The translations under genes and the position numbers were made by a program. Under the pieces are notes generated by a model, which was not told the origin of the DNA, did not search any database, and saw only the letters and a list, made by a program, of their open reading frames with translations. A stretch of DNA of 64,000 nt from Chthonomonas calidirosea (GTDB lineage: Bacteria; Armatimonadota; Fimbriimonadia; Fimbriimonadales; Fimbriimonadaceae). Of this stretch, positions 18,005 through 34,281 are shown piece after piece; positions within the stretch are counted from its first letter, which is position 1, and every line of letters begins with the position of its first letter. The stretch spans positions 1 through 64,000 of the forward strand of contig CAMAPH010000010.1 of the NCBI GenBank assembly GCA_945859975.1. The letters run 5' to 3'.

Positions 18005-21000
18005 ATGGGCGTTCATCGTCATTTCACGCGAATTCCGGTTCTTGGAATCGTCTCCCTCGTTGCCCTCAGCGCCTCGGCGCGAGCGCAGACCGTCTCTCCA
18101 GATGCATTTGGCGGTCTGAAGTGGCGAGAAATCGGCCCGTTCCGGGGCGGACGCTCTTTGGCCGTGGCGGGCAGCACCCAGCGCCCAGATGAGTACTTCT
18201 TTGGCGCCACCGGTGGCGGAGTTTGGAAGACCACCGACGCCGGAAAATCCTGGAAGCCCGTCTCCGATGGCTTCTTTAAGACAGCCTCCGTCGGCGCCCT
18301 TGCCGTTGCCCCCTCGAATCCCGACATCATTGTCGCGGGCACCGGTGAACGAGACATCCGCGGCAACATCTCCCATGGCGATGGCGTGTACAAGTCCACC
18401 GACGCCGGTAAGACCTGGCAGAAAATCGGCCTCGAAGCCGCCCAATCCATTGCCCGCGTCGTGATCCACCCAACAAATCCCGACGTCATCTACGTCGCCG
18501 CCCTCGGCCACATTTATGCCCACCCGAAGGTGAAGCCCAGCTACGACCGAGGCGTGTACAAGTCGATCGACGGCGGAAAATCCTGGGCGCACATCCTCCC
18601 CGGGGACGCCCGAACTGGATCGGTGAACATCGTCCTTGATCCGAAGAATCCTGAGACCATCCTCGCCGCGATGTGGGAAGCCTGGCGCAGCCCTTACACC
18701 ATGAACAGCGGCGGCCCTGGATCGAAGCTGATGAAATCCACCGACGGCGGCAAATCCTGGACCGACCTCAGCCGAAAGAAAGGAATGCCCGAAGGCGTCC
18801 ACGGCAAAATCGGCATGGCCATTTCTCCCGTCGACCCGAAGCGCTACTACGCCATCATCGAAGCCCTCGAAGGCGGAATCTTGAAGTCTGACGACGCCGG
18901 CGAAACCTGGGAGAAGGTCAACGACGACCGCAACTGGCGACAGCGCGCCTGGTACTACACCCACGTTTACGCCGATCCAAAGGAAAAAGAGGGACTGTAT
19001 GTCCTCAACGTCGGCGCCGGTAAAAGCACCGACGGCGGCAAGAAATTCTCTGGCCTAAGAACGCCGCACTCCGACAATCACGACCTATGGATTGCGCCTG
19101 ACAATCCACTCCGCATGATCAACGCCAACGATGGCGGAGCAAACGTCAGCACCGATGGCGGGAAAACCTGGACGGAGCAAACCTTCCCCACCGCCCAGTT
19201 CTATCACGTCAGCACCGACAACGCCTTCCCCTATCGCATCCTCGGCGCGCAGCAAGATAACAGCACCATCCGAATCCCAAGCCGAACGCAAGGGAACGGA
19301 ATTGGCCTCACCGATTGGACCAGTACCGCGGGCGGCGAAAGCGGCTACGTGGCCGCGAAGCCGAATGACCCCGATTTGGTCTTCGGCGGAAGCTACGGTG
19401 GCGACCTAAGCTGGATCAACCATCGGACCGACCAAAGTGGCAGCGTGGACCCTTGGCCAGATAACCCGATGGGTCACGGCGCCATCGACCTCGTTCAGCG
19501 ATTCCAGTGGACCTACCCAATCGTCTTCTCGCCGCACGATCCAAACCTCCTCTACACCTGCTCGCAATTCGTATTGAAAACCACGAACAACGGCCAGAGC
19601 TGGACCAAGATCAGCCCCGACCTGACCCGGAATGACCCCAGCACGATGGGCCCATCGGGCGGACCAATCACCAAGGACAACACGAGCGTCGAGTACTACG
19701 GCACCGTCTTCACCGTCGCCGAATCGCCCAAGAAGCGCGGCACCATCTGGGCTGGATCAGACGACGGTTTAGTCCACATCACCCAAGATGGCGGAAAATC
19801 CTGGACTAAGATCACCCCGAAAGGCGTCCCCGATTGGGCGCTCATCAGCATGGTGGACCCATCACCGCACAAAGCCGGAACCGCCTACCTCGCCGTGGAT
19901 AACCACGAAAACGACGACCTCCGCCCCTACGCCTTCCGAACCGACGACTTCGGCAAAACTTGGACGTCCATCACAAACGGCCTGCCCAACAACGCCTTCC
20001 TTCGCGTCATTCGCGAAGATCGAAAGCGTCCCGGCCTCCTGTATGCCGGAACCGAAATCGGCATCTACGTCAGCTTCGACAACGGTTCGAATTGGCAGTC
20101 GCTGGCCCTGAACATGCCCGTCGTGCCGGTTCACGACCTCGCCTGGAAAGACGATGACCTCATCGCCGCAACCCACGGCCGATCGTTCTGGGTCCTCGAC
20201 GACCTCTCGCCGCTTCAGCAACTCGCACCAAGCCAGAAGCTCGACAAACCCATCCTCTTTGCCCCGCGAGACAGCTACGCCGTCCGATGGGGCGGACGCG
20301 GAAATGCCGCCGCCGGCGCGGGAGCAAACCCTCCTAGCGGCGTCATCGTCAGCTACTACCTGCCGAAGAAAGCAGACAAGATCACCATCGAGTTCTCTGG
20401 CCCCGACGGCAAGGTTTTCCAGACCGCCGCTGGTGCATCAGGCGAGCCTGGATTCCAACGAACCACTGCGTTCTTGCAAGAATCGTCGTGGAAATCCGTC
20501 CCTGGCATGATCCTTTGGGGCGCCTTCCCAAGCTCCCTCATCATGCCCCCCGGCAAATACATGGTTCACCTGACCGTCGATGGCGTCAAGCAATCGGCCA
20601 AATTCAATTGGAAGCACGACCCGCGGATCCCCGCTACCGAAAAGGACCTGCAGGAGAAGCACGTACTCCTGAAGCAAATCGCCAAGCGGACCGATGACGC
20701 GAACAACGCTGTCCTCGAAATCCGCCGAGTGCGGGACGCTTTCGCCGCCAAAAAGACCGAAGCCTCCGCGAAGGGGCTCACGCCAATCGTCAAGGAAATC
20801 GACGACCTGTCGGGAATGCTTACTCGAATTGAGGAAGCGATCTACCAGACCAAGAACCGCAGCGGCCAAGACCCGTTGAACTACCCAATTCGATTGAACA
20901 ACCGAATCGGCGCGCTCATGAACGTGGTCCAATCTGGCGCTGGTCGCCCGACCGCCCAGTCGCGCGAGGTCTACAAAATGCTCGACGACCTCCTCGACAC

Positions 21001-21112
21001 CCAGCTACGGAATCTGTCAAAGGTCATCGCAGCCTTCATAGAGACCAACGGAAAGCTAAAGCAAAACCAAATCGCCGAGGTCCCCAACCTCGTGCCCAAC
21101 CCAGGCAAGTAA
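18005..21112 (+). CDS. Secreted BNR/Asp-box (VPS10/sortilin-like) glycosyl hydrolase
   Basis: WREIGPFRGGR; many S/TxDxGxTW Asp-boxes; ATHGRSFW. Confidence 0.9.
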   Translation: MGVHRHFTRIPVLGIVSLVALSASARAQTVSPDAFGGLKWREIGPFRGGRSLAVAGSTQRPDEYFFGATGGGVWKTTDAGKSWKPVSDGFFKTASVGALAVAPSNPDIIVAGTGERDIRGNISHGDGVYKSTDAGKTWQKIGLEAAQSIARVVIHPTNPDVIYVAALGHIYAHPKVKPSYDRGVYKSIDGGKSWAHILPGDARTGSVNIVLDPKNPETILAAMWEAWRSPYTMNSGGPGSKLMKSTDGGKSWTDLSRKKGMPEGVHGKIGMAISPVDPKRYYAIIEALEGGILKSDDAGETWEKVNDDRNWRQRAWYYTHVYADPKEKEGLYVLNVGAGKSTDGGKKFSGLRTPHSDNHDLWIAPDNPLRMINANDGGANVSTDGGKTWTEQTFPTAQFYHVSTDNAFPYRILGAQQDNSTIRIPSRTQGNGIGLTDWTSTAGGESGYVAAKPNDPDLVFGGSYGGDLSWINHRTDQSGSVDPWPDNPMGHGAIDLVQRFQWTYPIVFSPHDPNLLYTCSQFVLKTTNNGQSWTKISPDLTRNDPSTMGPSGGPITKDNTSVEYYGTVFTVAESPKKRGTIWAGSDDGLVHITQDGGKSWTKITPKGVPDWALISMVDPSPHKAGTAYLAVDNHENDDLRPYAFRTDDFGKTWTSITNGLPNNAFLRVIREDRKRPGLLYAGTEIGIYVSFDNGSNWQSLALNMPVVPVHDLAWKDDDLIAATHGRSFWVLDDLSPLQQLAPSQKLDKPILFAPRDSYAVRWGGRGNAAAGAGANPPSGVIVSYYLPKKADKITIEFSGPDGKVFQTAAGASGEPGFQRTTAFLQESSWKSVPGMILWGAFPSSLIMPPGKYMVHLTVDGVKQSAKFNWKHDPRIPATEKDLQEKHVLLKQIAKRTDDANNAVLEIRRVRDAFAAKKTEASAKGLTPIVKEIDDLSGMLTRIEEAIYQTKNRSGQDPLNYPIRLNNRIGALMNVVQSGAGRPTAQSREVYKMLDDLLDTQLRNLSKVIAAFIETNGKLKQNQIAEVPNLVPNPGK

Positions 21113-21131
21113 CAGAAATTGCCGGTATTTG

Positions 21132-21165
21132 GGCCCTGCCGAAGACAACGTGCTTCGGCAGGGCC
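21132..21165. terminator. 13-bp stem hairpin after the BNR hydrolase gene
   Basis: ggccctgccgaag / cttcggcagggcc perfect inverted repeat; no clear U-tract. Confidence 0.4.
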
Positions 21166-21223
21166 GTCATCATGTTAAACTACCAACCCGCGCACCGATC
21201 ACATCGGAGCGTTCGTCCTTCCT

Positions 21224-21769
21224 ATGCCGAATGACGCACCGCGAGAATCTCTGGCCGAAAAACGATTGCTTAAGGCTCTGTCCGAAGGCGATCCGAACGC
21301 GCTTGGCCAAATATATGAGATTTATGGTGAGCGAATTTTTCGCTTCACCTACCGCTTCCTGGGCAACCGAACCGACGCAGAAGATGCAACGGCGGAAACC
21401 TTCCTGCGAGTGTTACGACGTTCGGCAGAGCTTCGAGCTGATGGCGCGTTTAAAACGTGGCTTTTTCGAATCGCTCGAAACTTATGCATCGATAAGCTGC
21501 GGCAACACAAGCTCCTGGAGCTGCCGCCCGACACGCCACTTGAGGGATCAGAAGAGCGAACAACCTTACGGGTTACCGTTCACGCCGCCCTCAACCAACT
21601 CCCGCAGGAGTATCAAGACCCGCTGGTGCTGTGCGATCTCGAAGATCTTAGTGCGCAAGAAGCCGCAAACATCTTAGAGATTAGTGTTCCGGCGCTGAAA
21701 AGCCGACTATACAGAGGGAGAAAAGCCCTCCGAGATAAGTTGGGCAGCCTCATGGAAGGTACGTCATGA
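21224..21769 (+). CDS. ECF RNA polymerase sigma factor (sigma-70 family)
   Basis: DAEDATAETFLR, FKTWLFRIARNLCID, region 4 ALKSRLYRGRKALR. Confidence 0.92.
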   Translation: MPNDAPRESLAEKRLLKALSEGDPNALGQIYEIYGERIFRFTYRFLGNRTDAEDATAETFLRVLRRSAELRADGAFKTWLFRIARNLCIDKLRQHKLLELPPDTPLEGSEERTTLRVTVHAALNQLPQEYQDPLVLCDLEDLSAQEAANILEISVPALKSRLYRGRKALRDKLGSLMEGTS

Positions 21770-22053
21770 AATCTGATTTACATAAAAAACTCGTAGACCT
21801 GTACGCCGGGGGAGAACTCCCGAAAGAATTGAACGAAGAACTAGAAATGGTCGCGTTCAATGACGCGGAACTTTCACACGAAATGTCAACCCTTCGACAA
21901 ACCGTGGATCTCCTCAAAAACGATCCCGGTCCGGAGTTCACCGAAGAAAGCTACCAACGTGTGCTCATGAAGATTTACGCCCGAGGCGGAAATATCGAAC
22001 CACGTGCGGCCACCCCAATCCATATGCAGTACCAACTGCCAATGCAAGGCTAA
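21766..22053 (+). CDS. Putative small soluble anti-sigma factor
   Basis: ATGA-coupled to the sigma gene; LVDLYAGGEL anti-sigma-domain-like start; no TM helix and no HxxxCxxC. Confidence 0.65.
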   Translation: MKSDLHKKLVDLYAGGELPKELNEELEMVAFNDAELSHEMSTLRQTVDLLKNDPGPEFTEESYQRVLMKIYARGGNIEPRAATPIHMQYQLPMQG

Positions 22054-22099
22054 GCGATCTCATGCGAACCCGGCAACAAACCAAACAAACCCGACTTCT

Positions 22100-23203
22100 A
22101 TGAAGTTTCAATGCCCTCGAAAGGAATTCTTTGAAGCAGTTAGCGCAGCAAATGCTGCGTCGAGCTCTCGCACCCCCGTCTCCATCCTTCAGCACCTGAA
22201 GATCAAAGCCGGCCCAACCGGTATCACGATCACCGGCTGTGATGGCGAAATGTGGGTCGTACGAGACGTCGCTTGTTTGGTGGAGGATCCAGGCGAACTT
22301 TGCTTGCCGGCAAAAACCCTCACCCAAATCGTCAGCCAATTGCCAGATGGCGATCTTGAGCTGTTCACCCTCCCCGACCACGGCGCCATGCTTGTGCAGT
22401 CGAAGTCGGAATACCGACTCCCGACCCTGGAAGCGGAAGACTTCCCCGACGTCCCCGTCTTTATGGGTGAAGCCGAACTGAAGCTGCCCCTCGGCGAACT
22501 CCGACAAGCCGTCGACTCCGTCGCCTATGCGGTTTCCACGGATAACCACCGACAGGTCCTTACCGGTGTTCTGTTCTCCTACAACGGAGACATCCTGACC
22601 CTCGTCGCCACCGACACCCACCGCCTCGCCGTCCGACGGATTTCGAAGCCGGGAATCGGAAGCCAAGTCACGGCCATCGTTCCCGATAAAGCTCTCCGAG
22701 CCATTAAGAACTTGCCGCTGGCCGACGACATCGAGATCACCCTCAGCTTCGACTCCGCCCGCGTTGGCGTCGAATCGACCGGTGCCACCGTCGTTTCGCA
22801 GCTCCTTGCCGGAACCTATCCGAACTGGGAGCGAGTTGTCCCGAGCGAATTCACCCGAACCTGGAGTGTCGAAAGCGACCAGCTTTACGAAAAGGTTCGC
22901 CGCGCCATGATCCTTGCCCAAGACAACGCCAACCGCGTTCGATTCAAGGGTGATGGAGACCAGATCGTCATCGCCGCCCGCAGCGAAGAGAAGGGCGAAG
23001 CGAAGGAAGAAATCCCAATGATTCCTTCCAACGGCGACCTCGAAATCGCCTTCAATGGCAAATATGTCACCGACTTCCTTGGCGCCGTAGATGGCCCGGG
23101 AGTTCGGGTTGAAATGACCGAGAGTTCACGGCCCGCCGTCTTCCGACCGGCCGAAGATGACAGCGAATACTTCTGCGTCATCATGCCAATGGCATTGGCC
23201 TAA
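22100..23203 (+). CDS. dnaN: DNA polymerase III beta sliding clamp
   Basis: Start reassigned to MKFQC (ATG 22100); VLTGV, VATDTHRLA, GTYPNWERVVP, IAFNGKY, VIMPM. Confidence 0.96.
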   Translation: MKFQCPRKEFFEAVSAANAASSSRTPVSILQHLKIKAGPTGITITGCDGEMWVVRDVACLVEDPGELCLPAKTLTQIVSQLPDGDLELFTLPDHGAMLVQSKSEYRLPTLEAEDFPDVPVFMGEAELKLPLGELRQAVDSVAYAVSTDNHRQVLTGVLFSYNGDILTLVATDTHRLAVRRISKPGIGSQVTAIVPDKALRAIKNLPLADDIEITLSFDSARVGVESTGATVVSQLLAGTYPNWERVVPSEFTRTWSVESDQLYEKVRRAMILAQDNANRVRFKGDGDQIVIAARSEEKGEAKEEIPMIPSNGDLEIAFNGKYVTDFLGAVDGPGVRVEMTESSRPAVFRPAEDDSEYFCVIMPMALA

Positions 23204-23210
23204 AGATCAA

Positions 23211-23636
23211 TCAGTGTTGGTGGGAACAGTGCTTCCCACCGCACTGGTGTTGCATCCGCTGATTCACCAAGTGAAACGCCACTAGCGCCAGCCCCGCAGT
23301 TACGCTTACGACCGTTTTGGCGAGCTCTCCGCCGGAAGCGACTTCTGTGCCATCGTGCGAATGCGGAAACGCAAACTGCCGCACAATCAGCAAACCGATC
23401 CCCAGCACAAAAATCCATGCTGGAATCATGCTGTGATGCCGCCGGTGACCATGAATCAGGGCCGCTAGGCCAACCGTCACCGCCACCCCGAGAAAGACGT
23501 ACTCGGCCGGCTCTGAAGCGACAAACCCAAGCCCCGCGACGCTGAGCAAACCCAACGCCAAACCGGTGAGCAGGCAATGAACCGCGCAGACGGTACTCGC
23601 CACCGCCCCCAGTTGGTCTAAGTTCATTCGCTTCAT
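23211..23636 (-). CDS. MerC domain-containing membrane protein
   Basis: LDQLGAVASTVCAVHC, HGHRRH, His/Cys-rich tail. Confidence 0.85.
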   Translation of the reverse strand: MKRMNLDQLGAVASTVCAVHCLLTGLALGLLSVAGLGFVASEPAEYVFLGVAVTVGLAALIHGHRRHHSMIPAWIFVLGIGLLIVRQFAFPHSHDGTEVASGGELAKTVVSVTAGLALVAFHLVNQRMQHQCGGKHCSHQH

Positions 23637-26289: not shown

Positions 26290-27171
26290 ATGAGAAGAGA
26301 ACGAAGAGGCGTCGCATTCGCAACCTACATGGGGCCGCTCCTAGATGCACTACGTCTGCTTGGTGATTCAGCTCATCGCTCGGAGGCCAAGGAAAAAACG
26401 GCAGAACTCATGGGAATCCCAGCCGAGAAGTTGGCTGAGCGCTACGAAAAGACTGGCGTCCTTGTTGTGCATAACCACATGGAATGGGCAGCAAGCGGAT
26501 TGCGCGCGTTCGGTTTCATCGGTGGAGCGGCTAAGGGAGTCTGGACGCTGACCGAAGCCGGACGGAACAAGCATTTGACGCTAGAGCAAGCGAACGAGCT
26601 GGCTCGAGAATGGAATGCGAAGAGACGTCAAGAAAGCAACGCTGGGCGGGCGGCACAACCAGAAGAATCGGAAGAACAGGACGCCGATTCGGGACCGGAA
26701 GAGGAGGTACAGGCTGACACGAGTCAGACGCTTATCCAGGTTTTGCAGAGCCTTAGTCCTGGTGGGTTTGAGCGACTTTCACAACTTCTACTGCGAAAGG
26801 CAGGCTTCACAAAAGTGGTGGTAACGGGAAGATCTGGTGACGGCGGCATCGACGGCCACGGCATATTGGAATTAAATGAGCTGCTCTCGTTCAGAGTCTT
26901 GTTCCAGTGCAAAAAGTACGCCGGAACGGTAGGTTCCGGAGCGGTGCGGGATTTTCGAGGGGCAATGACCGGAAGATCAGATAAGGGCATTATCATCACG
27001 ACCGGCACCTTTAGCACAGAGGCGGAGCGCGAGGCAATTCGTGACGGTGCGCCTCCCGTTGAACTTGTTGACGGAGAACGCCTGTTCGAGATGATGCAGC
27101 GATTGGAACTTGGGGTTGAGCCCAAAACCGTCTACGTGGTCAACCAAGCCTTCTTCGAGCAGTACAAGTAG
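26290..27171 (+). CDS. mrr: Mrr-family type IV restriction endonuclease
   Basis: Mrr_N (GVWTLTEAG) plus catalytic FERL, SGDGGIDG, QCKKY, VRDFRGA, LVDGERL. Confidence 0.9.
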   Translation: MRRERRGVAFATYMGPLLDALRLLGDSAHRSEAKEKTAELMGIPAEKLAERYEKTGVLVVHNHMEWAASGLRAFGFIGGAAKGVWTLTEAGRNKHLTLEQANELAREWNAKRRQESNAGRAAQPEESEEQDADSGPEEEVQADTSQTLIQVLQSLSPGGFERLSQLLLRKAGFTKVVVTGRSGDGGIDGHGILELNELLSFRVLFQCKKYAGTVGSGAVRDFRGAMTGRSDKGIIITTGTFSTEAEREAIRDGAPPVELVDGERLFEMMQRLELGVEPKTVYVVNQAFFEQYK

Positions 27172-27332
27172 TTTTATGCAGCGCTAGTTAGGTCAACAGT
27201 TCGGACTCGCCCTGCAATCGTCCGATGATGTTTTGACGATTCGGTTTGACTTTAGCGTAGGGATCGTCAACCAAGTCGTAGTTTTCTCGGACCGGCAGAA
27301 CCCCCAACAAAGGCAAACTGTCCGAGAGACCA

Positions 27333-27599
27333 ATGAAGGCGAATTTTGTTGTGAAAACGGTCCTTTGGGTGATCGCCGTTGGGCTCTGGCTCGTCACCGG
27401 CATCGCAGGGTTGGTGTTCTTCATCCGACTCACGCTCGCAATTCCAACCGCGTTCAGCGCCGACACCTCCAGACCGACCGATACCGTGATGGAAAATGCC
27501 TTCAATGTCGGTAGCACGGCGTCCCCGTACGCCATCATGGCCACCATCTGCGCCGTCGCCTGGACTGTGTTCTGCAAATCTCAAGCAACCAAGAGCTAG
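27333..27599 (+). CDS. Small two-TM hypothetical protein
   Basis: 88 aa with two hydrophobic segments; fills the gap between mrr and the PIN gene. Confidence 0.5.
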   Translation: MKANFVVKTVLWVIAVGLWLVTGIAGLVFFIRLTLAIPTAFSADTSRPTDTVMENAFNVGSTASPYAIMATICAVAWTVFCKSQATKS

Positions 27600-27610
27600 C
27601 GTTAGCGCAC

Positions 27611-28219
27611 CTACGTCTCGGAAGGACCAACCACCGGGTAGCTCACCTTTCCATCCGTGATCTGCAAGACCTTCTTCGCCACTAGCGCCGCCCGAACCGC
27701 CGCGACCTCTTCGTCCGTGATCAACGGCTGAAACAGTGCCCGAATCGCATTCGATAGCGTCTTCTCCGTCCGAGGTTTGGTCCCGTTTGGACTGTTCACC
27801 TTCGCGGCAAACGCCTCCACTCTTTCCTTTGTCGTCTTCGGCGCACCAGGCTTTAACCAAGGCAAGTCCGAGACTGAGCAGTACCGCGCGGCCAGAATCT
27901 TCTTGCCTTTCATGTATGTGAGCAAAGGGTCGAACCCGGCGTCCTTCGAAATAATGTGAAAGAACACCGGATGCTCCCGGCCACTCCTCTCGCCCATCGT
28001 GAACGCGATATGGAAATCCAACGCGTTAGGCCCAGCGGCGCTCACCGGAACGTACTCTCCTCGACTCCCAAGCGCTTGCATCTGCAGAACCAGCGCTGCG
28101 GGCAGCTTAACCTGGTTCGGCCCCAAAAATACGATCACTCGTACGTCCTCCCGATCAAGGTTGCTAAGGTCGAGAGAACTCACGTTCTCATAGTCAACTA
28201 ACACAAAGTTGATGCGCAT
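27611..28219 (-). CDS. PIN (NYN/LabA-like, PIN7-type) domain protein with C-terminal winged helix
   Basis: VLVDYENV, GPNALDFHIAF, IISKDAGFDPL, KPRTEKTL.N.I. Confidence 0.85.
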   Translation of the reverse strand: MRINFVLVDYENVSSLDLSNLDREDVRVIVFLGPNQVKLPAALVLQMQALGSRGEYVPVSAAGPNALDFHIAFTMGERSGREHPVFFHIISKDAGFDPLLTYMKGKKILAARYCSVSDLPWLKPGAPKTTKERVEAFAAKVNSPNGTKPRTEKTLSNAIRALFQPLITDEEVAAVRAALVAKKVLQITDGKVSYPVVGPSET

Positions 28220-28347
28220 TTTGCTGACCCCATTCTAGCGATTCAGGCGCGCAACCGGAAGAAGCCCGCAGCTGCCGGTCCTCCCGCCCCGGGGAGCTTC
28301 TGGCCGGAATCTCGTAGACTTCAAGGAAGTAGCAAAGAGCACCGATC

Positions 28348-28773
28348 ATGGAAAAACTGAAGCGATACTCGGCCTGGTTCTATGCGGCGGCGATTTATAA
28401 CGCGGTCTGGGGCGCGTTTGTCGTCCTCTGGCCCGAAGGCTATTTCAAGATTCTGAACCTGCCGACGCCCAACTACCTGCCGATTTGGCAAGGCATGGGA
28501 ATGGTGGTCGGAGTGTATGCGCTCGGCTACTGGCTCATCGCCCGCGACCCCGTCCGCTACGGCCCATTCGTCTGGGTCGGCCTCGCCGGAAAACTCTTCG
28601 GCCCCATCGGCCTCGTCTTCGCCGCCCTCAAAGGCGACCTCCCCTGGTCCTTCGGCTGGATCAACCTCACCAACGACATCATCTGGCTCCCCGCATTCAT
28701 CGCGTTCAGCTTGGACCTGGTGCGGTTCGAGCGGGAAAGAGTCGTTTTGCCTCAGCAGTCCTCGATCAGCTGA
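28348..28773 (+). CDS. Conserved four-TM membrane protein
   Basis: YNAVWG, WQGMGMVVG, VGLAGKLFGP, NDIIW; codon style like the core genes. Confidence 0.7.
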   Translation: MEKLKRYSAWFYAAAIYNAVWGAFVVLWPEGYFKILNLPTPNYLPIWQGMGMVVGVYALGYWLIARDPVRYGPFVWVGLAGKLFGPIGLVFAALKGDLPWSFGWINLTNDIIWLPAFIAFSLDLVRFERERVVLPQQSSIS

Positions 28774-28820
28774 AGGGTCACCTCGCCGCTCCGCTCAAAA
28801 AACCCCGGAACCATCGTGCG

Positions 28821-29279
28821 TCAGAGCCCTCTGACTTCAATACGCGCATTCTTCCAGCCTCTAAACTCTAGTCCGTCCCGATTCAACTTGGGCATAGGTT
28901 TCCAATCCGGTATCGGTTCAAAACCTGGCGCCGCTACCTGTAGTTCTTCATCGAACAAGGGCCGGATCAAATTTGGACCTAGTTCCTTGTACTGATGACT
29001 CAAATGAAAAAACTCAAATCTGTTCGGATGCAACTATAAGAGGTAGAAAAAGTGTGCGCTAACTATTAAGTCGCCAAAAGTCGATCTGACAACCTTCCCG
29101 TCCGCTCTAATGCTGCCATTCACCAGAATCCCTGTTTTGGGCTCAAGCACCGCTACCTCTGCGGTACCTAGATGGAAGATTACCGCATCGAAAATCAGCA
29201 TCCCGAGACCAATCAAAGCTAACTTGATCAAATTCATCCTAGAAAGAGCCTGGTTCCCACGTTTTGTATCAAGAGTCAT
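28821..29279 (-). pseudogene. Hypothetical N-terminal-TM gene interrupted by a single in-frame TAG
   Basis: ORFs 29034..29279 and 28821..29033 share a frame and abut, separated only by TAG at 29034-29036. Confidence 0.5.
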
Positions 29280-29524
29280 GAGTTATGGTCGCCTAGGAAT
29301 TCTTCCAAACCAACCCTTTCTGGCTCTCCAGTATCCTCAAATCGCCTTTCCTTGCAACAACACTTGCAGCCACTACACCATAAGTGACACTTGAATCTGT
29401 CGTTTGACTATTCAATCTAGTTCGCTCTGACTCTAATGAATACCTACTGCATAATCACATGCATTGCCTACAGCAAATCTTAAAATAGATGCTGATTCAA
29501 TGCTCGTTATCGGGAACGATTCAT

Positions 29525-29947
29525 TCAAACTACCTCTATCTCTTCCTGCCAATAGAGTTCAGCCCAGCGGCTAAGGCTTGTCATCTTAATTCCATGAATT
29601 CGGAACTCCCGCCCGTTCCAGTAGACATCTTGCTTTGGCTCAAAAGCGCATGACAATCCGTCGTATTCATAAGTAAATACGGGAAAGATCTCCAGCAGGT
29701 TATTTTCGCAGTAAATTGCAATGCCATAGTCAATATACTTTTCTTCCGCCGGATGAGAATGGTACACATCTCGGGCACAGCGCATCGCTTCCTTTATCCA
29801 TGAGGCGAGTGAAGCATATACATACTCTTGGCGGCCCCGTTGACTGAATTTTTCGAAACCATCGTATTGCGTGGGATGATTAGTTAAATCAGTCAATATC
29901 TGATTCAGCAATAAGAGGCGCTCCTCTGACAGGTTCGGCTCGTCCAT
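29525..29947 (-). CDS. Putative Rhs immunity protein
   Basis: AT-rich, acidic/aromatic ~140-aa ORF just downstream of the Rhs toxin; start MDEPNL at 29947 (ORF can extend to 30004). Confidence 0.65.
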   Translation of the reverse strand: MDEPNLSEERLLLLNQILTDLTNHPTQYDGFEKFSQRGRQEYVYASLASWIKEAMRCARDVYHSHPAEEKYIDYGIAIYCENNLLEIFPVFTYEYDGLSCAFEPKQDVYWNGREFRIHGIKMTSLSRWAELYWQEEIEVV

Positions 29948-30000
29948 ATACCAAAGATACTGCCACGGGAACCCCGAAGAGCGCAGAGGCAATCTCGTCA

Positions 30001-33000
30001 TCAATGACCGCCAAACAAGTCGATCACATCCTGAGCATCAGCCAACGGATTTATCAAATTGATCGCTTGACGAAGCAGATTCCCTCCCGTTCCTCCGCCG
30101 ACTCGCTTTTGCGCTTGATAGCCAAGGTCCGCAAATGGCACGACAAAGGAAGGGTTGTAGAATGTGTGTCCCTTTTTGTTCTCGGTCTGAAAATGACCGT
30201 CCTTGTCATAGTCACGATTGGATTTATGGCCCGGTCCATGTTCTAGTGTCTTTCCATCCACCGAGTCTTCAATTTCCTTAGCGATCTTACGCGCTTTCTT
30301 CGGATCCTTTGAAAATACTTTGACGTTCTTGCCAAACTTTCTTGCCTGTTTTGCCTGCTTTATTGTTAGCTTTCCAGCTTCGTGCCGCATCCAATTCCCA
30401 ATAAACTTGACCGCTTTAATGAAGTATCCAACTTTTCCAAGGCCCTCTGGATCAACAAAAGCTCCAGGGTTACCGTCCACGTAAGCATACCAATTGCGCC
30501 CATCCCGAATCGGGTCGCGCGTAAGAAACCGACCCGTTGCCGGGTCATAGTAGCGATGTCCTAGTAGCTGGTACTCGCTCTCGGCATCCGTCTGGTAGCC
30601 CAGTCCGCCGGCAAACCCAGCCTGCGTGTTCGTCGTGCCCGTCCTGCTAACCGCCGCACCGAAGGCGTCGTACTCCATCGAGTCCGTCATTGAACCCGCC
30701 GCAGTCAGCTTCTTCACCGATCCCAAGTAGTCTGCAAGTTGGTGCCGAGTCGTCCCGCCACTCCGCTCCGAAATCCCCGGAACCATAGTGCTCACGCTGT
30801 CCGAAAGCACACTCGCCGTCACATGAGCGCCATCGCGCTTGTAGATGCGGCTTCCGTTCGAATTGGATTTCGAAACGCGCATCCCAAAGCCGTTGTAAAC
30901 ATAAGAAGTCGTCGGTTGCCCAGTCCGGGCTAGAGACACCAAACGGTCGTCCTCGTTCCAGTTGAAGGTCCGAACCGTTCCACCCGAAGAAATCGAAGTC
31001 GTCCGCCCCGCCGCGTCGTAGGTGTAGTTCGTATACACTCCCCCAACCTGCCGGTACAACAGCTTGTCTGCATCATCGTACGTATAGGTCTCGGTGATAC
31101 CGTTGAGCTGCTTCGTCTTCCGGTTTCCGTTCTCGTCGTAGGTGTAGATGCACGTATATCCCGGACGAGATTCACCCAGAAGTTGGTCTGCCAAGTCGTA
31201 AGCGTAGGTCGTTGTTACCCCGCCCACAGTTTTCGTCTGCAAGTTACCTGCAGGCGAGTACACATAGGACTCCTGCTGCAGAATCGAGGCGTCGTTAGAC
31301 TTTCGGTGGACAATGGAGTTGAGCCGGTCAAGAGCGTCGTATCCAAACTCGCTCGTTGTTGCCCCGTCCGATTTTGCGTTGACTCTGCCGTAGCTGTCGT
31401 AGCCGAGCGACGTATCCACCCCGTCAACCGACTTCACAATGCGAGTTAAGCGGTCGGTCGTATAGGTGTAGTTAGTTACTGCCGTGCCCTCGGTCATGCT
31501 CGTGCGCCGACCCCACTGGTCGTACAGGTACGTCATGACTCCTTGAGGCGTGGACAGCTGAGTCAGCCGGTCATCGGCGTCGTAGTTCCATGTGGTTGTT
31601 CCCGTGGAATCGTACATTGCCATTTGTCGCCCGGCAATATCGTATGTGAACATGGTTGTCGGCAACGTGGAGTACTCGACTTCGATCAGGTTGTCCGATG
31701 CATCGTGATCGTAGAAGGTTGCTTGACCAAGCCCGTTGATCTTTCGGGACATGTTTCCGTTTCCGTCAAACTTATAAGCTTCGTACTGAGCATCCGGGAA
31801 CTGAACTTTCGTCACTTCACTGCGTGGTGAGTGAGTGTACGTCGTCGTCTTGCCTCTTCCATTGGTCACCAACACCAGGCGGTCACGCTCATCGTAGGCA
31901 AAGGACTGTTGATCTCCACGCGGATTGGTTTCCGTGAGAACCCTTCCAATTGCGTCACGGGTGACTGCTGTCAGGCGCCCCTCCACATCAATCGTGCTCA
32001 TCACCCACCCGAACACATTCATGTTCGTAGTCGATGACGCGCCATCGCTCCTGGTGGTCCCAATAAGCCGGCCCCAGTCATCGTAATCAAACGTCGTGAT
32101 GCGATTGCGGTTGTCGGTGAGTTGAACGGGCTTCCCGACGGTATGACCGACTCCGTACTGCACGGTGACTGAACCATCAGGCGTGGCAACGTGCGTTAGC
32201 TCTCCTAGCGCGTTGTAAGTTAGGCTGGTCGTGACACCCTCAGACGAAGCGGTCGCAAGGCTACCATCTGTATTGTAGGTATAGGTCCCCTGCACTTGGT
32301 TGAGCGCGTTCTTGACTTGAGTCACCGATCCCACAATGCCATCGCGAACGTAAGTCGTCGTTGCATTGATCGCGTTCTTCTCGGTCAGAGGGTCGTTGTA
32401 GGTGTTATACGTAACGCTCGCAAAGTTCCCCGAAGCGACCATTCTTGGGTCTTGAATCTTCTTGACGTTCCCAAATTGATCGTACTCAAACTTGGACAAT
32501 TGATTCCGGCCGTCTTTCGATGTACTAACGTTATAGAAGTTGTCGTAGGTTAAAGAATTGTAGAATCCAGCCTCGTCCTTTGTGCTGACAAGGAGCCCAG
32601 CGTTGTAATACTCGGTGATCTTTTCGCCACGATGGAACACATACTCCGTCGAATCTGCCAGATAATTGACCTTATACGTCTGCGGAGCAGGCACGACTGT
32701 ACTTCCAGAAATGCCAACGTGGTTCACCTTGAGCGGAGTCTGGAACTTAATCAGCTTATCATCCGCATCATAGTCAAACTTCCACTCCTTCCCTAATGCG
32801 TCCGTCTCTTTGATGATCCGATCTTCAAAGTCATAATCGAAACTGATCGTCGGTCGCGAACCATTGAGGCTGGGATAAGTGATCTGCGTTAAGACCTTGG
32901 TTCCGGCCGCCGCCCCTGCGATCGTTGACTGGTAGGTGAAGTCCCACACGCGGTTTCCGGGAACCGTGACGCTTTGTAATCGCTGCACCGCAATCGCGCT

Positions 33001-34281
33001 CGTTCCGGAGTACGTCATCGTGATCTTGCGCGCCGAAGAATCGCTGAGGACTACTTGTCTCGGGTTACCCGCCGTGCGCGAAACTGTGATCGCGTTGTTG
33101 AATCGGTCTCGATAGCTCGTCAAATAGCCGTTTCGATCGAATTCATAGGTCATCTGCGATTTCGTCCGCAGGACGTAGCCATTTTGGTATCGGAAGATAA
33201 TGTCGTAGAAGCCGGTCGGAGGGAAGAACCGATTGTCAAGGTCTGGATTTGCCCCGTAGTTGCGAGAGAAAACGAGTCGGCGACCGTCAGGATAGAACGC
33301 GGTGATTTTTTGCTTTGAAACCTCCGTGACGTTGCCAACAAAAATGAGCCGGAAGTCAACGTTGGTGCGCCACTTCTCCCCAACTCCAACTTCGCCTTGA
33401 TCCTGGACGCTGTTGTACAAGGTAAGCCCAATCGGCACCCCGCCTTTGCCTTTCCACCCGACAATCGGAATCGTCGTCATGCGGTTTCCTGTCTGCATGT
33501 TCACGGATCCCGGCGCTAGATCCGATCCACCCGCAGGCCGAGAGCCCTCCCAGGGGAAAGCAGCGCCTGGGCCGCTTGGGCGCTCGATGATTTGAACGCC
33601 TTCGCCGGTGCCACCGGTTGTGCTTGTGGTTCCAGTTGTAGAGGTGGTTCCGGTCGTGGAAGTCGTTCCGGTTGTAGAGGTGGTTCCGGTTGTAGAGGTG
33701 GTTCCGGTCGTGGATGTCGTTCCGGTTGTAGAGGTGGTTCCGGTCGTACTTGTGGTTCCAGTTGTGCTCGAGGTTCCAGTAGTACTTGTAGTTCCGGTTG
33801 TGCTGGTGGTCCCAGTTGTGCTCGTGGTTCCCGTACTCCCACTCCCGCCGGTCGTATACACAGGAGGACCAATCGGTGCCGTTGCTTCTATGCCCGTTAG
33901 CGGGGCATCCTTGGGTCGGGGCTCTGGACGCCCGATCAGTGCTAGGTTGTCGCTTGTGTCCTCCGGCGCATTTGGGTTGTATTCTGGTTCGGGATAGGCC
34001 GGTGTTGTACCGGCGATGATCGAAACGGCCGTACTAATATCTTGGACATCTGCCGAGTTATAAACATCACCTCGCGCGACGGGCTGAACGACCGGGTTCA
34101 GCCGAGTCGGTAGCGAGTTCACCGGATCGGTGTAATCCGAACCTGACTGAAGAGTCAGCGTAGTAAGCGAGGTCAACAGACTGTTGATCCCGGCCGCAGC
34201 CGACGAATACCCCACGACCATCGCAAGCACGAAGTGCAACCCACGACTCAATGCAACCCAAACCGATGTCCCCCAGAACAT
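30001..34281 (-). CDS. Rhs/YD-repeat polymorphic toxin with N-terminal hydrophobic segment and Thr-rich linker
   Basis: Numerous YD repeats; core end RYYDPATGRFLTRDP...YVDGNP...DPEGL; 145-aa C-terminal extension. Confidence 0.93.
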   Translation of the reverse strand: MFWGTSVWVALSRGLHFVLAMVVGYSSAAAGINSLLTSLTTLTLQSGSDYTDPVNSLPTRLNPVVQPVARGDVYNSADVQDISTAVSIIAGTTPAYPEPEYNPNAPEDTSDNLALIGRPEPRPKDAPLTGIEATAPIGPPVYTTGGSGSTGTTSTTGTTSTTGTTSTTGTSSTTGTTSTTGTTSTTGTTSTTGTTSTTGTTSTTGTTSTTGTTSTTGTTSTTGGTGEGVQIIERPSGPGAAFPWEGSRPAGGSDLAPGSVNMQTGNRMTTIPIVGWKGKGGVPIGLTLYNSVQDQGEVGVGEKWRTNVDFRLIFVGNVTEVSKQKITAFYPDGRRLVFSRNYGANPDLDNRFFPPTGFYDIIFRYQNGYVLRTKSQMTYEFDRNGYLTSYRDRFNNAITVSRTAGNPRQVVLSDSSARKITMTYSGTSAIAVQRLQSVTVPGNRVWDFTYQSTIAGAAAGTKVLTQITYPSLNGSRPTISFDYDFEDRIIKETDALGKEWKFDYDADDKLIKFQTPLKVNHVGISGSTVVPAPQTYKVNYLADSTEYVFHRGEKITEYYNAGLLVSTKDEAGFYNSLTYDNFYNVSTSKDGRNQLSKFEYDQFGNVKKIQDPRMVASGNFASVTYNTYNDPLTEKNAINATTTYVRDGIVGSVTQVKNALNQVQGTYTYNTDGSLATASSEGVTTSLTYNALGELTHVATPDGSVTVQYGVGHTVGKPVQLTDNRNRITTFDYDDWGRLIGTTRSDGASSTTNMNVFGWVMSTIDVEGRLTAVTRDAIGRVLTETNPRGDQQSFAYDERDRLVLVTNGRGKTTTYTHSPRSEVTKVQFPDAQYEAYKFDGNGNMSRKINGLGQATFYDHDASDNLIEVEYSTLPTTMFTYDIAGRQMAMYDSTGTTTWNYDADDRLTQLSTPQGVMTYLYDQWGRRTSMTEGTAVTNYTYTTDRLTRIVKSVDGVDTSLGYDSYGRVNAKSDGATTSEFGYDALDRLNSIVHRKSNDASILQQESYVYSPAGNLQTKTVGGVTTTYAYDLADQLLGESRPGYTCIYTYDENGNRKTKQLNGITETYTYDDADKLLYRQVGGVYTNYTYDAAGRTTSISSGGTVRTFNWNEDDRLVSLARTGQPTTSYVYNGFGMRVSKSNSNGSRIYKRDGAHVTASVLSDSVSTMVPGISERSGGTTRHQLADYLGSVKKLTAAGSMTDSMEYDAFGAAVSRTGTTNTQAGFAGGLGYQTDAESEYQLLGHRYYDPATGRFLTRDPIRDGRNWYAYVDGNPGAFVDPEGLGKVGYFIKAVKFIGNWMRHEAGKLTIKQAKQARKFGKNVKVFSKDPKKARKIAKEIEDSVDGKTLEHGPGHKSNRDYDKDGHFQTENKKGHTFYNPSFVVPFADLGYQAQKRVGGGTGGNLLRQAINLINPLADAQDVIDLFGGH
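33617..33832 (-). repeat. 12 x 18-bp coding tandem repeat encoding (TTGTTS)n
   Basis: 18-bp period with mostly synonymous variation inside the Rhs ORF. Confidence 0.9.

Follow-up and report, generated by a model that had tools for sequence, protein, structure and literature searches.

The 64,000-nucleotide (nt) stretch analysed here (hereafter the window; contig CAMAPH010000010.1 of assembly GCA_945859975.1, Chthonomonas calidirosea, order Fimbriimonadales of the Armatimonadota) carries a three-gene locus in which the gene of an extracytoplasmic function (ECF) sigma factor and that of a soluble 95-residue protein, a putative anti-sigma factor, directly precede dnaN, the gene of the sliding clamp. 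ECF sigma factors are sensors of envelope, redox and similar cues, and the sliding clamp is a hub for replication and repair proteins. The small protein ends in a short sequence resembling the motifs by which proteins dock on the clamp. We propose, with a probability of about 0.55, that the locus is a Fimbriimonadales operon in which the body of the small protein holds the sigma factor and its flexible tail binds the clamp, the clamp and not an envelope signal being the ligand of the switch. This suggests that an ECF sigma/anti-sigma pair may take its input from inside the cell and from replication, which would be new for such pairs and a direct wire between replication and transcription of a kind so far undescribed.

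A reading of the letters alone, without database searches (hereafter the sequence-only reading), had described an ECF sigma gene, an ATGA-coupled 95-residue open reading frame (ORF), a 46-nt gap without terminator and dnaN, and all of these were recovered at the same positions (Table 1). Indeed, the ATG of the small gene sits within the stop of the sigma gene (GTCATGAAAT, an ATGA overlap), and a consensus scan of the spacer saw neither a terminator-like nor a promoter-like site. A genome scan with the alignment of the small-protein family, made with one genome per species, confirmed 103 loci; the locus figures given here rest on the best 80 of these 103. The adjacency of the sigma and dnaN genes around the small gene was checked in each locus by tblastn. 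The trio lies adjacent and on one strand in all 80 loci, which come from genomes of different species, all of them Fimbriimonadales. The sigma and small genes overlap by 4 nt in 64 loci. Between the small gene and dnaN there are 1 to 148 nt (median 17.5); the gap does not exceed 20 nt in 47 of the 80 loci or 50 nt in 65 of them. The upstream gene of the window recurs in only 5/80 loci, its downstream MerC-like gene in 31/80 and the genes further out in 3/80. Because the trio is kept while its flanks vary, the conserved linkage argues for selection. The synteny that the sequence-only reading had singled out for verification is thus retained throughout and, by order and spacing, the sigma gene, the small gene and dnaN form one operon-like unit conserved across the Fimbriimonadales.

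The two better-known proteins of this unit are readily assigned. The sigma factor matches the Pfam families Sigma70_r2 (3.2e-18, residues 31-96), Sigma70_r4_2 (6.9e-15, residues 119-169) and Sigma70_ECF (3.2e-5), as well as the NCBIfam model TIGR02937, sigma70-ECF (92.8 bits for a cut-off of 42.9). It has regions 2 and 4 only and 181 residues (about 180 expected), as in ECF group 4. No named equivalog (SigW, SigM, SigE and others) could be attached to it: all equivalog and subfamily models among the 25 NCBIfam models shown fall below their cut-offs, the best being SigW PRK09641 with 131.8 bits vs a cut-off of 209, and only the superfamily model TIGR02937 passes. The dnaN product matches TIGR00663 (2.7e-75, 253.6 bits vs a cut-off of 137.65) and all three Pfam clamp domains. 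A longer dnaN ORF starting at a GTG at 22004 was rejected as an artefact of the ORF caller; since relatives align from the Met encoded at 22100, this codon is taken as the start. The start codon is ATG in 78/78 loci for the sigma gene and in 54/80 for dnaN. Across loci L003-L080 (L001 and L002 being excluded), identity to the proteins of the window is 69-84% for sigma, 50-69% for DnaN and 46-67% for the small protein. A stress sigma factor would not usually be better conserved than the essential DnaN, and the sigma factor may thus have a core function.

The feature that may link the small protein with the product of the next gene is its C-terminal tail. The small proteins of all 80 loci end in Q-[YLF]-x-L-P-[MIL]-x-x, with Q, L and P at positions -8, -5 and -4, so that the core always lies two residues from the C-terminus. 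Position -7, the second of the motif, is occupied by Y in 67 loci, L in 9 and F in 4, and position -3, the sixth, by M in 35, I in 35 and L in 10; the extended consensus reads H-[LMF]-Q-[YLF]-x-L-P-[MIL]-x-G. The hexapeptide QYQLPM to which the sequence-only reading had drawn attention was found as described, at residues 88-93, and the conservation on which that reading had made its proposal depend is borne out. In an alignment of 32 members, H86, Q88, L91 and P92 are invariant, and residues 75-85 are variable. The tail of 44 distinct 95-residue orthologues drawn from these loci has a mean column entropy of 0.86 bits, and the linker that precedes it one of 1.87 bits. In the AlphaFold2 (AF2) model, the last two 10-residue blocks have a predicted local distance difference test (pLDDT) score of 64 and 58. 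The motif therefore has the setting looked for in a clamp-binding motif, being located in a flexible terminus and conserved amid variable surroundings. The bacterial clamp-binding consensus is QL(S/D)LF at C-termini (PMC9690074), and the tails observed here are of the QL[SD]LF or QLxLx[LF] type. A resemblance of the LPMQG ending to the LPXTG signal of sortase substrates was also considered and rejected: the protein stops at the G, carries no hydrophobic segment (maximal 19-residue Kyte-Doolittle mean of -0.04) and no signal peptide, and has Q instead of T.

The tail is also kept in relatives far more distant than the loci. A word-indexed search retrieved 275 relatives of the small protein at E <= 0.01; the best 120 of them share 60-99% identity, and 108 of these 120 have exactly 95 residues. 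When 1.84 billion representatives were searched exhaustively with a profile, just 63 clusters came up at E <= 0.001, which marks a narrow family. Among 274 distinct members of 85-115 residues, the loose form of the motif, Q[LYFMIW]xLx[LIMF], lies within the last 20 residues in 266 and the strict form in 258, and several of the eight motif-less members look truncated or frameshifted. Fourteen divergent members, with 23-37% identity to the sequence heading their alignment, share M1, L19 and the Q of the motif as their sole invariant residues, and the divergent tails include QLSLF, QLDLPL, QLGLPL, QLTLPI, QMELPL and QWPLPL. To judge from these endings, the drift of the motif stays inside clamp-binding sequence space, the distant members being canonical. 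By comparison, neighbouring ORFs, totalling 249,334 residues, contain the loose motif 35 times, and none of 865 other ORFs has it among its last 12 residues; of the 867 examined, two gave hits, both being the small protein translated from an in-frame start further upstream. Two variants of the ending were observed. One subclade (P0176, P0179, P0200, P0203, P0204, P0210 and P0211) carries a tandem motif, for example QLDLPL-SG-QFQLPI, and in another (P0193-P0199) 12 further residues follow QMELPL.

Docking of the tail in the DnaN pocket, which the sequence-only reading had proposed as a check, was addressed by folding the DnaN alignment together with residues 64-95 of the small-protein alignment. 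The complex scored 0.54 (runs of 0.54, 0.60 and 0.43) vs 0.01 for the best control, a pass that may reflect likeness to solved clamp-peptide complexes. When an unrelated protein replaced DnaN, the score was 0.01. The runs share at least 61% of their contacts, with a partner pLDDT of at least 46. Of 157 solved complexes, 116 reach the mark applied to these scores, as do 2 of 215 mismatched pairs; just 18 of the 157 reach it with a score of 0.60 or less, and so do both of the passing mismatched pairs. The check thus gives weak support. From this prediction and the conservation of the motif, we infer that the tail docks on the clamp.

The identity of the body of the small protein is less directly accessible. 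The sequence-only reading had noted an anti-sigma-like protein devoid of transmembrane helix, sensor domain and the cysteines of zinc-binding anti-sigma (ZAS) domains. These absences hold: the protein has no Cys, and therefore no HxxxCxxC zinc motif; its highest 19-residue hydropathy mean, given above, leaves no transmembrane helix; and it is without a sensor domain. The AF2 model (pLDDT 78.8) contains helices at residues 2-14, 20-32, 34-51 and 60-72, after which the linker and tail are modelled with low confidence; the four-helix part thus spans residues 2-72 (nt 21769-21981) and the variable linker residues 73-85. A Foldseek search of the PDB with this model gave no significant match (best E = 1.1), and the top-ranked folds, all non-significant, are dominated by sigma-bound ECF anti-sigma domains, namely ChrR, RslA, RskA, MucA, RsiW and RseA; the match to RsiW has a TMt of 0.60 and an rmsd of 3.3 A. 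One locus, L080, contains a zf-HC2 anti-sigma factor (Pfam 1.7e-8); when the family was aligned to it by hhalign, the N-terminal LxDLYAGxEL pattern (LxxLYxxxEL segment) came in register with it (E = 0.069). The best NCBIfam model for the small protein is 'antisigma' NF052375, at a non-significant E of 0.13. In the ESM Atlas, only the family's own Armatimonadota clusters were recovered, together with a rank-8 cluster containing 12% zf-HC2, which is a lead only. Relatives are labelled 'anti-sigma factor RsiW' or 'anti-sigma factor family protein' in two sources. The anti-sigma identity advanced by the sequence-only reading is therefore not supported by any significant match in sequence or fold, although anti-sigma domains lead the ranking of the fold search. 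As a putative identity it is well motivated by the translational coupling and the predicted four-helix fold, and by analogy with class I anti-sigma domains the body would hold the sigma factor. In a 199-residue metagenomic protein, P0132, the first two thirds of the sigma factor and the last two thirds of the small protein share one frame; this fusion is probably a deletion or an assembly artefact and not natural.

Combining these elements, the following mechanism can be proposed. The four-helix body would bind the sigma factor in the manner of class I anti-sigma domains, and the flexible linker would expose the tail to the cleft of the clamp, which would become the input of the sigma/anti-sigma switch. 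In the favoured loop, free clamp bound to the tail would keep the anti-sigma factor competent, either by stabilising it or by locking it on sigma. When clamps become scarce, or sequestered on DNA, during replication stress, the tail would be empty, the anti-sigma factor would be lost or inactive, and sigma would be released. A loop of opposite sign, with the anti-sigma factor pulled off by clamps loaded on DNA, would fit the data equally well. Because one transcript would make all three proteins, the ratios between sigma, anti-sigma and clamp would be fixed and the supply of clamp would feed back on the switch. The direction of the clamp effect, as well as a role of the sigma factor in driving its own operon, is speculative. 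Tentatively, and with somewhat less than even odds, the occupancy of the tail by the clamp may set the activity of the ECF sigma factor; the operon would then be a homeostat for the only dnaN and an input of replication status to a regulon, and would give the clamp-dependent transcription of phages T4 and Mu its first counterpart in a cell.

Other explanations share part of this evidence. The small protein could be an anti-sigma factor whose tail serves the sigma switch itself, through a contact with sigma or RNA polymerase or as a C-terminal degron for a cytoplasmic protease, the likeness to clamp motifs being coincidental and dnaN just sharing the transcript. A soluble anti-sigma factor must receive its input from somewhere, and a terminal degron is a known kind; the Tyr at the second position of the motif is non-canonical, and the complex predicted with DnaN is weak. 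It is difficult to see on this account why the tails of divergent members drift to the canonical QLSLF, QLDLPL and QLGLPL and to no other pattern, why dnaN is linked in 80/80 loci despite variable flanks, and why the score falls to 0.01 when an unrelated protein takes the place of DnaN. We consider this explanation unlikely, although it is the likeliest of the alternatives.

Alternatively, the small protein could be a replication factor, namely a regulator or adaptor of the clamp like Hda, YabA or SocB, that does not inhibit sigma at all and is adjacent to the sigma gene for co-expression only. SocB and Hda demonstrate that small clamp binders can regulate replication (PMC9690074), and the lack of significant anti-sigma homology leaves room for such a protein. 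The ATGA coupling to the sigma gene in 64/80 loci speaks against it, as do a helical body closer to anti-sigma domains than to anything else in the PDB (by non-significant matches) and an N-terminal LxDLYAGxEL in register with a zf-HC2 anti-sigma factor. The resemblance to the named adaptors is also slight: a very weak YabA match was found in 1 of 32 members (E = 0.26), and the protein has no Cys with which to form the zinc-binding domain of YabA; with 95 residues, no Pfam domain and no AAA+ or zinc domain, it does not belong with Hda and the other DnaA-related AAA+ proteins. This explanation is distinctly improbable. Finally, the background of 35 per 249,334 residues gives a prior of roughly 1e-3 that any one protein C-terminus carries a loose match. 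A chance match of six residues in an ordinary ECF pair, without any shared function, is very unlikely given the conservation seen in the alignments, with Q, L and P invariant at a fixed position in 80/80 loci, the motif present in 266/274 members and Q among the three invariant residues of members with 23-37% identity.

Several observations nevertheless weigh against clamp control of the sigma factor as proposed here. The prediction of a DnaN-tail complex gives weak support, and its partner is poorly folded. The second residue of the motif is Tyr in 67/80 loci, the canonical residue being Leu. No anti-sigma family was matched in Pfam by 32 aligned members at E up to 10, and the small protein has no significant family in Pfam or NCBIfam; a sequence-profile search of the PDB gave a best E of 0.17, to an unrelated protein; and the hhalign alignment with the zf-HC2 anti-sigma factor of L080 covers 18 N-terminal columns and is not significant. 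Part of the synteny is shared ancestry, since all 80 loci belong to one order. In 15/80 loci the gap before dnaN is 72-148 nt long and highly structured, and that of L026 contains a terminator-like hairpin followed by a run of seven T. A candidate ECF promoter, GCGCAY-N18-CGTC, is largely explained by a hairpin and occurs at chance level elsewhere, and the conserved promoter of the operon looks, from its sequence, like a housekeeping promoter of the extended -10 type and not like an ECF promoter.

The long gaps deserve a comment. Fourteen of the 15 fold as a stable hairpin, with energies of -17.8 to -58.8 kcal/mol (L005, L006, L008, L010, L017, L019, L026, L031, L038, L041, L046, L048, L051 and L057), and the co-transcription of sigma and dnaN may therefore be modulated in some species. 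Several of these hairpins, for example those of L005, L006 and L010, are large palindromes made of short direct repeats and resemble inserted repeat elements.

Table 1. Positions of the features of the sigma-dnaN locus in the window
Feature	Position	Strand	Basis
Extended -10-like element TGTTAAACT, with hexamer TAAACT at 21176-21181 (48 nt 5' of the sigma ATG)	21173-21181	+	Recurs across loci; putative promoter function
Conserved hairpin GCGCACCGAT-CAC-ATCGGAGCGT, predicted 5' end of the operon transcript	21190-21212	+	Per-sequence count
CGTC box, 7 nt 5' of the sigma start codon	21214-21217	+	Near-invariant
ECF (group 4) sigma factor, 181 residues	21224-21769	+	Pfam r2 and r4_2; TIGR02937 over cut-off
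Soluble 95-residue protein, putative anti-sigma factor	21766-22053	+	ATGA overlap; AF2 four-helix model
Tail HMQYQLPMQG	22021-22050	+	Q, L and P invariant in 80/80
Clamp-binding-like core QYQLPM, residues 88-93	22027-22044	+	Match to clamp-motif form
Spacer, 46 nt	22054-22099	+	No terminator-like or promoter-like site
dnaN, DNA polymerase III beta sliding clamp, 367 residues	22100-23203	+	TIGR00663; three Pfam clamp domains

The upstream region of the sigma gene was compared in the 78 loci having sufficient 5' sequence. In 74 of the 78, the 80 nt preceding the sigma start contain a TAnA[AC]T hexamer, and 46 of the 78 have TGn in front of it; in these 46 loci, the hexamer begins at -46 to -51. 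A two-hexamer consensus scan of the window did not list the corresponding element at 21173-21181. Because the promoter looks housekeeping, dnaN expression need not depend on the ECF sigma factor, and the idea that the ECF sigma factor drives dnaN finds no support. The CGTC box begins at -8 to -12 in 77/78 loci. It could be the -10 element, of ECF type, of a leaderless transcript, or could belong to the leader RNA.

A hairpin of at least 5 bp ending 0-4 nt 5' of CGTC is present in 69/77 loci (mean z of -2.1 vs shuffled sequences), and in divergent loci the leader hairpin is kept with an unrelated sequence. RNAalifold found no consensus pair in 71 leaders because the register of the hairpin shifts between loci; hence the hairpin was counted sequence by sequence. 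A count of pairing in fixed columns was modestly positive, with 63.7% paired vs 57.4% in shuffled and 32-50% in slid sequences. No Rfam family was found in 20900-23500. The conserved leader could be a 5' stabiliser or a regulatory RNA, or could overlap with the ECF -10 of a leaderless transcript. The GCGCAY-N18-CGTC candidate was downgraded, its GCGCAY half being an arm of the covarying hairpin: the window holds 2 matches vs 1.9 expected, and the loci hold 64 matches at sigma genes and 26 elsewhere (818 kb, both strands).

Two further observations concern transcript boundaries in the window. Most of the 31 gene starts inspected are without a Shine-Dalgarno sequence, and several starts (those at 23636 (-), 41924 (-), 59687 (-) and 7580 (+) are examples of the starts inspected) show TAnnnT about 7 nt 5' of the ATG, as expected if leaderless mRNAs were common in the lineage. 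A perfect 13-bp inverted repeat (GGCCCTGCCGAAG ... CTTCGGCAGGGCC) occupies 21132-21165, 20 nt past the stop of the upstream BNR/sortilin-like gene, and has no T run; it probably marks the end of the upstream transcript and the start of the control region of the sigma operon.

To our knowledge, a link between transcription and the sliding clamp has been shown only in phages, for gp55 and gp33 of T4 and, in 2026, for MuC of Mu. In late transcription of T4, the sigma-like gp55 and the co-activator gp33 bind the gp45 clamp via C-terminal motifs (PMC9690074; PMC12867686). Like these proteins as there described, the small protein would be a component of the initiation machinery with a short hydrophobic clamp motif at its extreme C-terminus, and the clamp would couple transcription to replication. 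However, T4 is a phage with its own clamp, its motifs are carried by a sigma-like protein and a co-activator and not by an anti-sigma factor, and the clamp activates RNA polymerase directly. No sequence relationship with the T4 proteins was seen, no search aimed at one having been made. MuC, a member of the Mor/MuC family, is a transcription factor with near-consensus clamp motifs, requires these motifs and host DnaN for late transcription and, in excess, titrates clamps away from Hda (PMC12867686). It would resemble the protein studied here in that a regulator of transcription carries a clamp-binding motif. It differs in being, in the published account, a DNA-binding phage activator that acts with sigma-70, without a sigma/anti-sigma pair and with a gene that is not beside dnaN.

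Cellular systems offer partial likenesses. Hda carries the motif QLSLPL, and the terminal hexapeptide of QLxLPL type is the form best matched by the present tails; unlike the small protein, Hda is an AAA+ protein with an N-terminal motif, and its target is DnaA, which it serves to inactivate in a regulated way. To Hda, the DNA-loaded clamp signals that replication is under way (PMC9690074). The SocB toxin of Caulobacter and the eukaryotic Cdt1, a PIP-degron protein, are small regulators dependent on docking on the sliding clamp by the usual motif, and the PIP-degron is a case of clamp-dependent proteolysis (PMC9690074). In contrast to what is proposed here, SocB acts by blocking the elongation step of replication, Cdt1 meets its destruction on PCNA, and neither controls a sigma factor. 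With class I anti-sigma factors (RsiW, RslA, RskA, ChrR, RseA and MucA), the small protein shares a gene directly after, and coupled to, that of an ECF sigma factor and a predicted four-helix body of about 70 residues. Unlike class I and ZAS anti-sigma factors, it has neither zinc motif, transmembrane segment nor sensor domain, it carries a clamp-binding-like end, and its fold matches have E values of at least 1.1. A literature search, which left most subscription journals outside its scope and covered mostly titles and the starts of abstracts, found neither an anti-sigma factor with a clamp-binding motif nor an ECF-dnaN operon, in agreement with the statement of the sequence-only reading that it knew of no such system.

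A whole bacterial order thus locks together a sigma factor, an anti-sigma-like protein with a clamp-type tail and dnaN, and this dnaN is the only copy listed for one member (PMC4072686). In this member, Fimbriimonas ginsengisoli, the usual dnaA-dnaN-recF-gyrB cluster is reported as scattered, with dnaN 210 kb from dnaA, and one beta-subunit gene is listed whereas 30 rpoE-type sigma genes are counted (PMC4072686). If the tail binds the clamp, it would be a simple and testable way to read the state of replication, or the supply of clamp, into transcription. Were the proposal true, the clamp would join the short list of intracellular anti-sigma ligands, and the departure of dnaN from the neighbourhood of dnaA in this lineage would be explained. 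As F. ginsengisoli is cultured, the prediction is open to ordinary biochemistry.

Some observations bear on the source of the window and on the loci sampled. A protein 99% identical to the small protein is named from a Fimbriimonadaceae bacterium; in locus L001, on a 3.29-Mb Fimbriimonadaceae chromosome, sigma and DnaN are identical to those of the window and the small protein is 99% identical. Locus L077 (JADZEW010000008.1), in a metagenome-assembled genome labelled Methanoregulaceae archaeon, contains the full bacterial trio, with a sigma factor of 79% identity; the archaeal label is probably a binning or labelling error. Among the 53 window ORFs scanned, none matched dnaA, recF or gyrB, and GC skew (the imbalance of G and C along the strand) shows no switch inside the window and is uninformative on the origin.

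Downstream of dnaN, the gene of a MerC-family membrane protein (23211-23636, - strand) is convergent with the dnaN end. In 31/80 loci a MerC homologue is encoded no more than a few kb from dnaN, mostly downstream and on the opposite strand, and it is the only partly conserved neighbour. Further along, the region 26290-34281 encodes an Mrr-type restriction nuclease (26290-27168), a PIN-domain protein (27614-28219, - strand) and a 1426-residue RHS-repeat protein (30004-34281, - strand), the gene of the latter being directly followed downstream by a small ORF (29528-30004, - strand); this cluster looks like a defence or polymorphic-toxin island.

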